In this document: piece by piece, positions 21,794-27,305 of the stretch
Layout: every line of letters starts with the position of its first letter
Numbering within the stretch: position 1 is the stretch's first letter
Source: Escherichia phage B9-1
Sequence record: OQ420740.1
Length of the DNA: 64,000 bases
Reading direction: 5' to 3' (one strand)
Program-made: the position numbers and the translations under genes
The notes under the pieces: model-generated
Told to the model about the DNA's origin: nothing
Seen by the model: only the letters and a program-made list of their open reading frames with translations
The model's database searches: none

Positions 21794-22725
21794 TGCATAT
21801 AGTCCTCGTTGTGGAAATAGCAGTCAAGTATCTCACGGCGTTCCTGCTCCAGGAGGCAATTCCACACATCTTCTGTGTAGTTTCTACGAATGAAGTTTAC
21901 CATGCCGTAAAACTCTTCGTCAACACGTTTAAAGATATCATCATCCCAAATCTTCCAAGCTTTACCCCTCATTACGGCCTTCCGTGCCAAATAGTATGGA
22001 GACTTGATCTTCAGCTGAAGATCATAAGGGTAGTAAGGCTTACGAATCATATACCCTTCACCTCTTGTTTCTGCAGCTAATTCTTTTGCATAGCTGAACG
22101 GAATTTCACGCACAGTGTGAGGACGTTTTGCACCAAGGTATTTGGCAATCCCATCTAAAGCTGCTTCTGGTAGCATTATTCCGGAATCATTATATCTGCA
22201 ACCTATCAAATATGCGCCATGATCTTCCTGAACAATATGCGGATCTGAAGGGTGACAAATTTCAAACATGAATGTCATGTTTTCATGGCCCATAACCTTC
22301 TTGATAAGATCTAAATTACCACATTGCTCCTGGATGGTTTCCTTTGCAAGGTTACAATATGGAGAATCAAGAGACCCGGTTGTTGAAAACAATAGTTCAC
22401 CTTTATGAGATGATACCACACCAAGGAATCCGTTCTTTTTCTCTACCGCCGTCACAAGTTTATTGTCAGGCAGGTTGGTGGAGTTTTCTCCCAAATTAAA
22501 CACTTTTGTGAAGGGCCATGCCACAACATTTCCTTCATTACCGACAACAATGCCTCGGCACTCTAGTAAACGCGGAGACAAATGCCATAAATTGTTGTAG
22601 AATACTTTTCTGGCATATTTGTAGATCTTTAATCCAAGATCTGGGTAATATCTGCTGGTTACAAGACCTTTGTCAACCAGGTCGTCTGCATTAAAATACT
22701 TCATCATACATTCCTCATTTGTCAT
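21790..22725 (-). CDS. RNA ligase (Rnl1-like nucleotidyltransferase)
   Basis: 311 aa; motif I 'EKKNGFLG' (compare T4 Rnl1 'KEDGSL'), motif IV-like 'GEGYMIRK', motif V-like 'LKIK'; a separate KxDG DNA ligase exists at 18033-19316. Confidence 0.55.
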   Translation of the reverse strand: MTNEECMMKYFNADDLVDKGLVTSRYYPDLGLKIYKYARKVFYNNLWHLSPRLLECRGIVVGNEGNVVAWPFTKVFNLGENSTNLPDNKLVTAVEKKNGFLGVVSSHKGELLFSTTGSLDSPYCNLAKETIQEQCGNLDLIKKVMGHENMTFMFEICHPSDPHIVQEDHGAYLIGCRYNDSGIMLPEAALDGIAKYLGAKRPHTVREIPFSYAKELAAETRGEGYMIRKPYYPYDLQLKIKSPYYLARKAVMRGKAWKIWDDDIFKRVDEEFYGMVNFIRRNYTEDVWNCLLEQERREILDCYFHNEDYMQ

Positions 22726-22768
22726 TTTGTCCCTTTATTCTGCCACACAAATAACCTGGTGTCAACAC

Positions 22769-22797
22769 TTGAAATTAACAAAACAGTTAGGTATACT
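22769..22797 (+). promoter_or_regulatory. sigma70-like promoter (TTGAAA-N17-TATACT)
   Basis: -35 at 22769-74, 17-nt spacer, -10 at 22792-97, then RBS GGAGAG and ATG 22826. Confidence 0.5.
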
Positions 22798-22825
22798 ATC
22801 ATTAAAATTAAAACGGAGAGTTACT

Positions 22826-23236
22826 ATGTCTAAAATGCTATATATCGTGCGTGGTCTACCAGGGTCTGGCAAATCAACACTGGCAAATGCGCTATCTTTA
22901 GAAGGTCTGTATCCACATTTTGAGAACGATATGTTCTGGTACGACGATGACGGCAATTACAATTGGGATGCAAGTAAAGTAACACTTGCAGCAAAATGGT
23001 GCAAAGATAACGTAGAAGATATGATGCGTATGGGCTACGACCGTATCGTGGTAAGTAATACGTTTACAAAAGAAAAATATGTGCAAGAATATATTGACAT
23101 GGCGATCAGTCATGGATATAGTTATACCGTAATCGTGGTTGAAAACCGCCATGGTAATAAAAGCATTCATGATGTTCCAGACAGGGTTGTGGATCGTATG
23201 GAACGCCAGCTTAAAAACTGCATTAAACTTAAATGA
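22826..23236 (+). CDS. polynucleotide 5'-kinase-like P-loop protein
   Basis: 136 aa from the RBS-supported ATG; 'GLPGSGKST' (T4 Pnkp 'GCPGSGKST'), 'IVVSNTFT' (T4 'VIISDTNL'), 'VPDRVVDRM'. Confidence 0.7.
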   Translation: MSKMLYIVRGLPGSGKSTLANALSLEGLYPHFENDMFWYDDDGNYNWDASKVTLAAKWCKDNVEDMMRMGYDRIVVSNTFTKEKYVQEYIDMAISHGYSYTVIVVENRHGNKSIHDVPDRVVDRMERQLKNCIKLK

Positions 23237-23243
23237 GGAATGT

Positions 23244-23798
23244 ATGAAATACTTTGTAACAAGCGACACACACTTTCTCCACCAGCGGGTAATGGAGTTC
23301 GACTCATGTCAAAAACACAGATCTCAGTATGATCACAATCTTGACAGTATGAATGCGGGAATCATCACCAAGTGGAACTCTGTTGTGTCACCTGCAGACA
23401 CTGTGTTTCACTTGGGGGATATTGCGTGCACTAATGATAAGAATATCAACAAATTGCTTCCAGATGTTCTAAATATGCTGAACGGACATATTATTCTTGT
23501 TCGTGGTAACCATGACACAAGGACGACTGTCAGAATTATGAAAGAGTTCGGTCATGAGGTTGTAGATTATTACGAGCTTCGCCACAACAAGAATTTGATC
23601 TGTATGAGCCATTACCAGTTTGCAAAGTGGAACAGAAAGCCTCACGGATCAGTCCAACTGTTCGGTCATGCTCACGGAACCACACAGCAGTTGTTTGGCA
23701 GGCAGTTTGATGTCGGTTGGGATGTGTGGGGGAGACTCTTACCATTAGAAGAGGCATACCGTATTGCAATGAGTCTTGCTATTGACAGCGGGGAGTAA
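23244..23798 (+). CDS. calcineurin-like metallophosphoesterase
   Basis: 184 aa from ATG 23244; 'VTSDTHF', 'HLGDI', 'VRGNHD', 'GHAHG' metallophosphatase motifs. Confidence 0.75.
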   Translation: MKYFVTSDTHFLHQRVMEFDSCQKHRSQYDHNLDSMNAGIITKWNSVVSPADTVFHLGDIACTNDKNINKLLPDVLNMLNGHIILVRGNHDTRTTVRIMKEFGHEVVDYYELRHNKNLICMSHYQFAKWNRKPHGSVQLFGHAHGTTQQLFGRQFDVGWDVWGRLLPLEEAYRIAMSLAIDSGE

Positions 23799-23845
23799 TC
23801 CCTGCTATTTTAAAGAAAATTGCCACACAAGGAGAATCAGGAGAT

Positions 23846-24196
23846 ATGAAAGATGGGGATAAGCTGCTATATCTTAAAGTCCCCCTTGAAATACTGTCTA
23901 TGTCAAAAGTTTTGAATGACACAACTGGGGAGGTTGTTGTTCTTGACTTATATGACAAGATCGTATACTGCTACCTGCACAACTGGTACAAGCTTGGAGG
24001 AAATTCACGCTTCACACCCAGCACAAGGAAAATTGCAGCAGATGTTGGGATAAAGAAAACAAAAGCAGCAGCGTGCGTTAAAACTTTAGAATGTGCAGGA
24101 GTGGTTGAAATATCCACACAAGGGAGAGGTAAAAGATGCACATTTTCCAAAGTTTTGCCACCAGAAGAGGTTATTCGAATGTCAACAACTGGTTAG
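23846..24196 (+). CDS. hypothetical protein (possible DNA-binding)
   Basis: 116-aa ORF immediately upstream of the iteron array. Confidence 0.35.
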   Translation: MKDGDKLLYLKVPLEILSMSKVLNDTTGEVVVLDLYDKIVYCYLHNWYKLGGNSRFTPSTRKIAADVGIKKTKAAACVKTLECAGVVEISTQGRGKRCTFSKVLPPEEVIRMSTTG

Positions 24197-24270
24197 ACCA
24201 GTAAAAACTTAAATATCTGTACTATAAGGATTCGTATGTTTTATGTCCACCCCAGAGCAGAGGATAGTAA

Positions 24271-24354
24271 CTGTCCGTGATACGGACACTACTGTCCGTC
24301 ACGCGGACACATCTGCCCGTAATACGGACACTAACTGTCCGTGATACGGACACA
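24271..24354. repeat. four tandem palindromic 19-bp repeats (iteron/operator-like), about 21-bp period
   Basis: 'ctgtccgtgatacggacac' at 24271 and 24336 (identical), variants 'ctgtccgtcacgcggacac' at 24292 and 'ctgcccgtaatacggacac' at 24313; each carries inverted GTCCG/CGGAC half-sites. Confidence 0.7.
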
Positions 24355-24857
24355 TAAAGAATATAACTAAAATAACTAAATAATAAAAAATAAAAGATCT
24401 AGTACTTATGGTACTAAAGTGCATATACTTAACTTATGTAGAATATACTAGATCCTAAGTACCATGTTTTAAATTTATTACTTATTGTTGGTAGTGTCGG
24501 CCCTTCATTGGCACTCGCCTACGAGGGGCGAGATGCCGGGCCTCCATAGTGCACACAATGACAGAAGTGCATACATGCAGGACTGTTAACATGTGTGGTA
24601 GCGAAGCGATAGCGCAGGCCAAAGGCCTAGCACTAATGTGGACCACCGACGAAAGCTTGCCAGCGCCGGAAGGAGTCGGTTGAGAGACTCCCGCGCGAGT
24701 TCTGATAAAGTTTATGTGTGGAAACTGACAAGAAGGCTCCTAAATCGCTACACAGCTATATAAACTATACCAAGTAAGGCAATCGCACCAGTTTGATAGA
24801 AAAGCTCGTTACAAAGCGATACAGTGAGTTTTTCTATAACTTGAAGAGGAGTCTGCT

Positions 24858-25436
24858 ATGAGTTCACGCAAAGATGCCGGTGAAAAGATTGCAAAACGTT
24901 ATCAGAATGAAGAACAGATGGAGAAAACTTTCAAGTGGAAGCCAGGTTTCCAGCGTAATCATTCTAACGCTCGTGATCGTAAGCATCCTGATAAGTGGCT
25001 AACACCGCCAAATGATGGCATGCAGGTTGGTGATGAGAAGGAGCTATCACCTGGAAAAGATGGCAACTACATTCGCACTAAGGACGCTAGTCCAAAGGAT
25101 GACAGCTATCTTGTAGATAAGGTTCTTGATGGTATTGATGTAGATGTTGACACTGCACGAAACCTTTTTCTTGGTTGGTATCGTACAGGGTTTTTCGACA
25201 TCAAGGCCATTCGTCGTGTTTGTGATATTAAAAAGTCTGCATATGATGACGACTCGTTACATCGCACCCTGAGACAATATTCAGAAAGATATGGTCATCC
25301 GGTTATCACTCTTGACGATGTTAACGAAGTGATGTATCATGCAGAGGTTGTTGCAGGCAGATTTGGTGATGCATATCTTGATATCCTTTCTGCAAACGAT
25401 GAGGTAATGTTGAATAAGATTTACTATGAACGTTGA
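24858..25436 (+). CDS. hypothetical protein
   Basis: 192-aa ORF with RBS GAGGAG upstream. Confidence 0.4.
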   Translation: MSSRKDAGEKIAKRYQNEEQMEKTFKWKPGFQRNHSNARDRKHPDKWLTPPNDGMQVGDEKELSPGKDGNYIRTKDASPKDDSYLVDKVLDGIDVDVDTARNLFLGWYRTGFFDIKAIRRVCDIKKSAYDDDSLHRTLRQYSERYGHPVITLDDVNEVMYHAEVVAGRFGDAYLDILSANDEVMLNKIYYER

Positions 25437-27017: not shown

Positions 27018-27108
27018 GGAGGGTAGGGAGCAATGGTGCTCAAGCGGTCTTGAAAACCGTCCCGTTGAGGATGACTCGATGATGGTTCGATTCCATTACT
27101 CTCCGCCA
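27018..27108 (+). tRNA. tRNA-Ser (anticodon UGA), long variable arm
   Basis: Acceptor ggagggt/actctcc, anticodon loop CUUGAAA, T-arm gatgg-TTCGATT-ccatt, encoded CCA, 91 nt. Confidence 0.7.
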
Positions 27109-27206: not shown

Positions 27207-27305
27207 GCTAGGTAAGCCCTTTGGCAAGGGCGAGGATTTTTAATCCTGAAAATAGACGAGGTAGTCGTTGAATACATAGGTGGTTCGATTCCATCACCTA
27301 GCACC
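27207..27305 (+). tRNA. atypical tRNA-like element (99 nt), identity unresolved
   Basis: Perfect 7-bp acceptor gctaggt/acctagc, D-arm gccc...gggc and T-arm ggtgg-TTCGATT-ccatc, but about 30 extra nt between anticodon region and T-arm; a possible UUU anticodon loop 'tttttaa' is non-canonical. Confidence 0.35.

Follow-up and report, generated by a model that had tools for sequence, protein, structure and literature searches.

The DNA considered here is a 64,000-nucleotide stretch of Escherichia phage B9-1 (sequence record OQ420740.1), referred to below as the window. Our subject is the 660-bp intergenic region at 24197-24857, in which an array of four palindromic repeats (iterons) is followed by an A+T-rich block, and which is considered as a candidate origin of replication together with the winged-helix protein, here called gp79, encoded just upstream. 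Both open reading frames (ORFs) flanking the region lie on the + strand. The region itself has a divergent coding-strand switch 1.5 kb to its left and, ~2 kb to its right, a tRNA cluster, after which the spanin, terminase and structural genes follow. The 1.2 kb around the array is 99% identical to Escherichia phage EduardKellenberger (MZ501061) and 90-99% identical across ~118 GenBank records of rV5-like phages (genus Vequintavirus), in which the array is labelled just 'repeat_region'. Whole-genome scans were made on MZ501061, the closest relative, which is complete (131.5 kb). The features on which the argument rests are the following.

23846..24196, + strand: gene for the 116-aa winged-helix protein (rV5 ORF79/gp075, here gp79), candidate iteron-binding initiator
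24271..24289, no strand: iteron 1, CTGTCCGTGATACGGACAC, a perfect TGTCCG-N5-CGGACA palindrome
24292..24310, no strand: iteron 2, CTGTCCGTCACGCGGACAC, varying solely at the innermost position 24299 (T/C)
24313..24331, no strand: iteron 3, CTGCCCGTAATACGGACAC, with one half-site mismatch
24335..24353, no strand: iteron 4, CTGTCCGTGATACGGACAC, the same as iteron 1 and adjoining the A+T-rich block
24354..24484, no strand: A+T-rich block, top strand A-rich, candidate DNA unwinding element

The four 19-bp palindromes, located by reading the sequence and with a repeat finder, start at 24271, 24292, 24313 and 24335, that is, 21, 21 and 22 bp apart, and have a 17-bp palindromic core, TGTCCG-N5-CGGACA. 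An earlier sequence-only reading of the window, made by a model from the letters alone, had described this array, which is real and has the spacing given here, the one correction being that the fourth repeat starts at 24335 and not at 24336. As the centers lie 21-22 bp apart, all four sites are on one face of the helix. Allowing up to one mismatch, GTCCGYNNNRCGGAC has four matches in the window, all of them in the array, against 0.14 expected, and none of 100 shuffles reached four. The genome-wide search that the same reading had proposed gave a similar picture in MZ501061, where TGTCCG-N5-CGGACA with up to two mismatches occurs in the array and at a single 2-mismatch site elsewhere, and isolated half-sites are scattered at background frequency; the motif is thus neither frequent nor randomly placed.

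Conservation was followed in an alignment of the window with five relatives (six phages, the most divergent being Aya, at 88.8% protein identity). Sites 1, 2 and 4 show no change in their six-base half-sites, and variation within the array is limited to the central five bases or to position 24316 of site 3, the half-site of iteron 3 being TGTCCG in JEP1 and EduardKellenberger. Just upstream of the array, 24245-24268 is hypervariable (18 of 24 positions vary), which makes the array, with its fixed half-sites, the most constrained part of the intergenic region. It is also unchanged across relatives whose gp79 proteins are 86-91% identical. This pattern fits a protein-binding site with a spacer that is not read. 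A second hypervariable patch is found at 24485-24491, where seven of seven columns vary, and the two patches look like the borders of a constrained cassette made of the array and the A+T-rich block.

This block, which the sequence-only reading had described correctly as strongly A+T-rich and carrying inverted repeats of its own, has a GC content of 15-30% over ~24350-24480 and an AT skew of up to +0.41. The 60 nt after iteron 4 are 83% A+T, compared with 56% for the window, and the block is the most A+T-rich 60-, 100- and 120-nt window of MZ501061. It is nearly invariant across relatives, and it contains two tandem 9-mers, ATAACTAAA (24363-24380), the palindrome AGTAC-N5-GTACT (24401-24415), two TATACT motifs (24424 and 24444), and, on the minus strand at 24387-24399, GATCTTTTATTTT; it also holds the sole exact match in the genome to GATCTNTTNTTTT. 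The minus-strand segment 24387-24399 is an exact and unrepeated match, again the only one in the genome, to the 13-mer GATCTnTTnTTTT, which we take to be the E. coli oriC 13-mer consensus; this is a lead and not a test. An unwinding element of the E. coli oriC type, with three tandem 13-mers beside DnaA boxes, was rejected, the 13-mer being single and DnaA boxes being absent from 24100-24900. Sites for integration host factor were likewise absent near the array.

The 116-aa ORF that the sequence-only reading had placed at 23846-24196 is present, and its product is named 'putative transcriptional regulator' in several GenBank records or otherwise 'replication initiation protein'. It defines phrog_12838 ('replication initiation protein') and weakly matches phrog_8102, 428 and 270, which bear the same name, PHROG names being annotations and not tested functions. 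The family is tiny: among 1.84 billion representative proteins ten matches were found at E <= 1e-3, and five by word index, and a search of viral contigs gave no relatives. The nearest relatives, at ~30% identity, are longer (180-230 aa) and are encoded at the divergent early-gene switch of other phages, in one case between the genes for a primase-helicase and a family-A polymerase. Two loci with such relatives (L010 and L011; labels of this form are our own) have no palindromic array. Upstream of the gene for the gp79 relative, their divergent intergenic region (around L010 5440-5520 and L011 5440-5525) has an A+T-rich stretch and then two AGGTACA repeats 22 bp apart, with two further copies more upstream. 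These repeats may serve that branch of the family as its equivalent site, a likeness which is suggestive and not comparable with the array.

A structural model of gp79 was obtained with AlphaFold2 from a 16-sequence alignment (predicted local distance difference test score, pLDDT, 81.5), a single-sequence run having given an unusable pLDDT of 42. The model is a winged helix that ends after the wing and one short helix. Compared with the PDB by Foldseek, it is closest to 4ro3, an uncharacterised Vibrio domain, followed by the N-terminal domains of RepA_N initiators (4pql, 4pt7 and 5kbj), which match over the full length (112-115 columns, E 4e-4 to 2e-3). Regulators of the MarR, CodY, ArsR, SlyA and LexA types match more weakly and over fewer columns.

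The comparison that decides most is with other genomes, in which the array motif is found in company with proteins of the same kind. Public collections (596 Gb) were searched for two adjacent TGTCCG-N5-CGGACA sites 2-8 nt apart, a pattern of 24 specified bases for which we estimate ~1e-5 chance matches in this volume. Arrays of 2-7 sites with a period of 20-25 bp came up in 19 viral and 38 bacterial contigs. At four of the bacterial loci, and in 17 or more of the 19 viral contigs, an ORF encoding an N-terminal winged helix contains the array or directly precedes it, and 14 of the 16 such ORFs that were scanned match PHROG families named 'replication initiation' or 'O-like', ORF calls in the high-GC contigs being partly approximate. 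Nine related viral contigs of the L031 type encode a 225-aa protein that passes the Pfam HTH_36 threshold and matches phrog_270, 345, 391 and 678. Among the other viral loci, the ORFs of L027, L029, L032 and L035 match phrog_270, that of L024 the O-like phrog_345, and that of L023 phrog_16167 and phrog_18020, and L020 has the same layout by inspection; in L026 the HTH_36 protein, of 120 aa, stands alone, and the array begins 3 nt past the stop codon of its gene. The bacterial loci are L042 (Actinoplanes), which matches phrog_270, 391 and 678; L044 (Treponema), with HTH_36 at 1.4e-9 and a ParA gene nearby; L045, with HTH_36 at 1.9e-11; and L049 (Parachlamydiaceae), which matches phrog_391 at 4e-22 and lambda O's own phrog_277 at 8.5e-15. 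Lambda O itself belongs to phrog_277 and also matches phrog_391, 678, 345, 5810 and 18020. Except for the ParA gene next to L044, the genes around these other O-like loci are mostly uninformative.

The layout common to these loci, taken in the orientation of the gene, consists of the coding part for the winged helix, iterons from codon ~108-186 (117 in lambda) and an A+T-enriched stretch; in nine of ten loci the 60 nt past the iterons are 10-27 points above the contig mean in A+T. At L024 (6505-6550) the enriched tract is built of short direct repeats, with TTAGACTCTTC occurring three times, and at L027 (6967-7010) and its homologues it holds AAATCTAAGAAGAT-like repeats; both echo the tandem ATAACTAAA 9-mers of the phage block.

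The same search found the motif in other company as well. Ten loci (L043, L046, L048, L052, L054, L056, L059, L066, L071 and L075) have two or three sites, mostly exactly 20 bp apart, just past genes ending in a Fis-type helix-turn-helix (HTH). Most come from metagenome-assembled genomes (MAGs) of Burkholderiales, and several lie beside genes for branched-chain amino-acid ATP-binding cassette transporters. L075 (Sigma54_activat plus HTH_8 in Pfam) is the sole confirmed sigma-54 activator of the set. These bacterial sites are probably upstream activator sites, so that a different protein fold would be using the same DNA word. Seven further loci (L047, L041, L039, L050, L074, L037 and L025) have arrays of three to five sites that are not accounted for by an O-like gene. 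The L050 array is upstream of a gene for a Mg-chelatase/ComM-like ATPase, and all of the seven apart from L047 and L050 adjoin ORFs without a family match.

To connect gp79 with these proteins, eleven of them, all array-bearing, were aligned over their N-terminal domains, with gp79 left out. Compared with the gp79 family by hhalign, this alignment matched at 93.9% (E 1.6e-7) over helices 1-3 and the wing. A hidden Markov model made from it, run on all ORFs of 50 codons or more from the complete phage genome, had gp79 as its sole match (E 2.7e-6), and gp79 is thus the one protein of the genome of the kind that accompanies the iteron sequence elsewhere. On these profile comparisons, gp79 is homologous to the N-terminal origin-binding domain of O-like initiators, to which it corresponds, and the proposal of the sequence-only reading that the 116-aa protein is a candidate binder of the array is strengthened. 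No RepA_N membership emerged at the level of sequence, with phmmer against the RepA chains of the PDB giving E ~1.2 and Pfam no RepA_N match. ORF77, the gene to the right of the intergenic region, was considered as a split-off C-terminal domain and rejected, as it has no similarity to the C-terminal domains of O-like proteins.

Taken together, the array and the A+T-rich block are probably a lambda-type iteron origin of the rV5-like phages, with gp79, minimal and of a single domain, as the candidate origin-binding initiator and with the iterons placed beyond its gene. We give this reading, which is computational throughout, a probability of about 0.68. The sequence-only reading had offered an origin and a multi-operator region as alternatives, and the origin is now the better supported of the two, because the motif is unique in the genome, the A+T-rich block is extreme, and the motif, where it occurs elsewhere, lies within genes for O-like initiators. 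Several observations weigh on the other side. The gp79 protein falls just under the Pfam cut-offs (HTH_36, PF13730, 24.5 vs 25 bits; DUF6945, PF22182, 27.1 vs 28 bits), PF13730 being listed in a precomputed table for the 98%-identical P0001, and an hhalign comparison of its family with lambda O itself gives no significant match. It also lacks the C-terminal domain with which lambda O recruits the helicase loader, and among the ORFs of the genome none was found to resemble such a domain or lambda O. The module of gp79 and array, which is confined to Vequintavirus sensu stricto, is missing from sister genera with the same polymerase and primase-helicase set; in a synteny comparison these have a rearranged neighborhood and no analogous array. 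Elsewhere the motif adjoins bacterial sigma-54 activator genes, where it is probably a transcription site, and the array of L047 (3522-3601) lies between large terminase and head protease genes, while three or four loci (L025, L037, L041 and L050) are left without an explanation. Finally, GC skew does not single out the locus beyond the nearby coding-strand switch. The sequence-only reading had proposed skew as a check; GC and AT skew were followed over both the window and the whole genome, but since every extremum coincides with a coding-strand switch it cannot discriminate between the readings (PMC3606486). The rV5 genome paper had also sought the replication origin by skew and found transcription switches alone (PMC3606486), and our literature search found no paper connecting rV5-like phages with iterons.

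The neighborhood of the array includes three further features.

23782..23811, + strand: sigma-70-type promoter-like site, TTGACA-18-TATTTT, the second hexamer preceded by TG, 10/12 in the consensus scan
24492..24715, + strand: G+C-rich block of ~220 nt between the A+T-rich block and ORF77, GC 50-62%
24858..25436, + strand: ORF77, 192 aa, function unknown, right neighbor of the intergenic region

The promoter-like site, upstream of the 116-aa gene, corresponds to the promoter 'P76' given as a regulatory feature in the rV5 RefSeq record NC_011041, and a promoter and terminator scan found no terminator-like site between it and the array. The G+C-rich block differs little among rV5-like phages, apart from 18 nt that are deleted in rV5, and when folded as RNA it reaches a z-score of -3.07 whichever strand is taken; no Rfam match was obtained for it at gathering or permissive thresholds, at both of which the Rfam search returned tRNAs alone and nothing in the intergenic region, and six sequences gave no covariation. 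Some records call ORFs of 31-56 aa here, not all in the same frame. The block may belong to the origin or encode a non-coding RNA. ORF77 has no Pfam match and falls in phrog_12226 (unknown function); tblastn found it solely in the same ~119 Vequintavirus records as the module, of which this co-occurrence makes it a candidate, though unproven, member.

The organization of the wider neighborhood differs among genera. In Mydovirus, Seunavirus and Justusliebigvirus (L014-L016) the genes for phosphoesterase, RNA ligase, kinase, Sir2 and DNA ligase keep a colinear order on a single strand, whereas in Vequintavirus (window ~22725-24200) the kinase and phosphoesterase genes are inverted relative to those for RNA ligase and Sir2, and the gp79-array-ORF77 module is located at the boundary of this rearrangement. 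In the tRNA cluster, ARAGORN predicts at 27207-27305 a 99-nt 'tRNA-???' with a four-base anticodon (atcc), annotated as tRNA-OTHER or tRNA-Lys in relatives and reaching merely 35.5 bits in Rfam, and the tRNA-Ser at 27018-27108 is below the Rfam gathering threshold. A second region of the genome deserves mention: MZ501061 89,968-92,520 (L008 39969-42519), the 'non-coding' region of the rV5 paper, is a 2.5-kb stretch without annotated genes at the convergent junction of two transcription blocks. The second most A+T-rich stretches and the GC-skew maximum both fall in it, which makes it a candidate for the terminus or for a second origin.

With no terminator on the way, the upstream promoter would bring the four palindromes, which lie past the stop codon, into the gp79 mRNA, where each unit could form a 7-bp stem, and they could thus be tandem hairpins acting, for instance, as a 3' stabilizer or as a processing or attenuation signal. 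We give this explanation hardly any credence: phasing at exactly 21-22 bp is what one expects of double-stranded DNA, the T-to-C change often seen in site 3 (24316) disrupts the stem with no compensating change, no hairpin is followed by a T-tract, and in other genomes the same motif lies inside coding sequence.

A more serious alternative is that gp79 is a transcription regulator (repressor, roadblock or activator) acting at four cooperative sites, which would control read-through or a non-consensus promoter on the way from the early genes to ORF77, the tRNA cluster and the late morphogenesis genes. The operators OR and OL of lambda are also tandem 17-19-bp palindromes at about two helical turns, and in geometry the array suits this reading as well as it does an origin. 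The position of the module between sigma-70-type early promoters and the tRNA and late region would suit such a role, as would its place 1.6 kb upstream of the terminase gene in the L031 group, the name 'putative transcriptional regulator' in several records, the weaker fold matches of gp79 to MarR, CodY and SlyA, and the occurrence of the motif beside sigma-54 activator genes with a Fis-type HTH (L075). Against it, a scan for sigma-70-type sites, other promoter types being outside its reach, found none on the + strand of 24197-24857, and the sole nearby match on the - strand does not overlap the array and varies among relatives in its -35 hexamer; the authors of the rV5 genome paper predicted neither promoter nor terminator in this intergenic region. 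The sites are downstream of the gp79 stop codon and not at the gp79 promoter, there are no further sites elsewhere in the genome, and the homologous proteins with the same sites are O-like initiators. An operator array is therefore considered unlikely.

A third alternative is a pac site, where headful packaging would begin once a winged-helix protein resembling a small terminase has bound the repeats. The genomes of rV5-like phages are circularly permuted and packaged by the headful mechanism (PMC3606486, PMC8407724, PMC13211470), and no small terminase is annotated beside the large terminase, TerL. The module is upstream of the packaging genes both here and in the L031 group, and the L047 array directly follows the TerL gene. 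A winged-helix protein that binds repeated R sites is known in lambda gpNu1. Yet ~4 kb separate the array from TerL, an interval occupied by five ORFs, seven tRNA genes and two spanin genes; the profile and fold relatives of gp79 are replication initiators, with no terminase among them and no terminase family matched; and most arrays elsewhere are inside initiator genes. MG065672.1, an unverified entry under the name 'Campylobacter phage A141' that is actually a Vequintavirus and whose site 2 reads TGACCG, was linearized at 24267|24268, exactly 3 nt before repeat 1. This opening could be a real end or, as a simple alternative, an assembly break at the exact 21-nt repeat, and the other ~117 records are not opened at the array. 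Packaging from this site seems to us a good deal less plausible than even the operator function.

If the locus is instead an iteron origin, we infer that gp79 binds the iterons and that unwinding, helicase loading and the start of replication take place here. The protein would be made early from its own strong sigma-70-type promoter, and its dimers would occupy the four 17-bp palindromes on one face of the helix; the resulting O-some-like complex would bend or strain the DNA and open the adjacent A+T-rich element, upon which the T7-gp4-like primase-helicase and the DNA polymerase (encoded at 65.5-70.4 kb of MZ501061) would begin synthesis. Since there is no terminator between promoter and array, read-through transcription may assist, as at the lambda origin (ori) (PMC7466680). 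A further and more tentative proposal, which we regard as possible and on balance doubtful, is that gp79 is a minimal initiator, a stand-alone 116-aa winged helix without a helicase-recruiting domain that acts on iterons outside its own gene. A lambda-type complex would then act together with a primase-helicase that loads itself in the manner of T7 and T4, on the A+T-rich element once this is opened or transcribed, and the G+C-rich block might provide a primer or an R-loop-forming transcript. As a corollary, one iteron word, TGTCCG-N5-CGGACA, would be common to very divergent O-like initiators from coliphages, Actinoplanes, Treponema and a Parachlamydiaceae MAG.

The rV5-like phages belong to the coliphages most often isolated and most used in therapy, and a defined origin and initiator would aid genome engineering, rebooting and studies of replication control. 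The protein gp79 and the array are a directly testable protein-DNA pair, and with a natural initiator cut down to DNA binding one must ask by what route the helicase reaches the origin. More generally, a search with a DNA motif can identify origins across unrelated phages.

Among the known systems with which the locus can be compared, the origins of T4 (oriF and oriG) and the primary origin of T7 belong to virulent phages with a replisome of their own and have an A+T-rich unwinding element downstream of a promoter or activator site, and there the helicase can load without a loader of the lambda P type. We know of no iteron array and no dedicated origin-binding winged-helix protein at these origins, and, in contrast to them, no promoter was identified next to the rV5 array. 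The operators OR and OL of lambda consist of three or four tandem 17-19-bp palindromes to which dimers bind cooperatively; they differ in overlapping promoters, of which none was found at the rV5 array, and the cognate protein family here is initiator-like. The presumed sites of sigma-54-dependent bacterial enhancer-binding proteins in Burkholderiales and Symbiobacterium have TGTCCG-N5-CGGACA in tandem, 20 bp apart, but usually as two sites and with a Fis-type HTH_8 rather than a winged helix as the binding domain, and the phage has neither such a protein nor a sigma-54 context. The RepA_N initiators of Gram-positive multiresistance plasmids (4pql, 4pt7 and 5kbj) are the best full-length fold matches of gp79 after 4ro3; the titles of their PDB entries name initiator N-terminal domains, 5kbj being a Rep-DNA complex. 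They differ from gp79 in carrying a C-terminal domain, and in host range and replicon type.

The closest likeness is with the lambda origin. Both loci have four tandem 18-19-bp dyad repeats at about two helical turns (20/24/23 bp in lambda, 21/21/22 bp in rV5) with an A-rich, A+T-rich tract directly after the last repeat, the lambda layout having been checked (PMC7466680); in both, the DNA-binding part is an N-terminal winged helix coded just upstream of the repeats, and read-through transcription is possible from an upstream promoter. Families 391, 678 and 345 of PHROG are common to the relatives of gp79 and to lambda O. The differences concern the half-site and spacer (TGTCCG with 5 bp here, TCCCTC with 6 bp in lambda), a P-like helicase loader, which was not identified in the rV5-like phage, and the replicon itself, a virulent myovirus of 131-140 kb that encodes a primase-helicase and a polymerase of its own. 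Moreover, the iterons, which in lambda are mid-gene, are here 75 bp past the gp79 stop codon (24196), and gp79, at 116 aa, is without a C-terminal domain. Because it has the DNA features of the lambda type and an O-like binding domain and departs from the lambda family in these last two respects, the locus is best classed as a variant, which would work like a lambda-type iteron origin with iterons outside the gene and an initiator without a C-terminal domain. This short form, with extragenic iterons and a single-domain protein, is not unique to the rV5-like phages, as L026 has it too.

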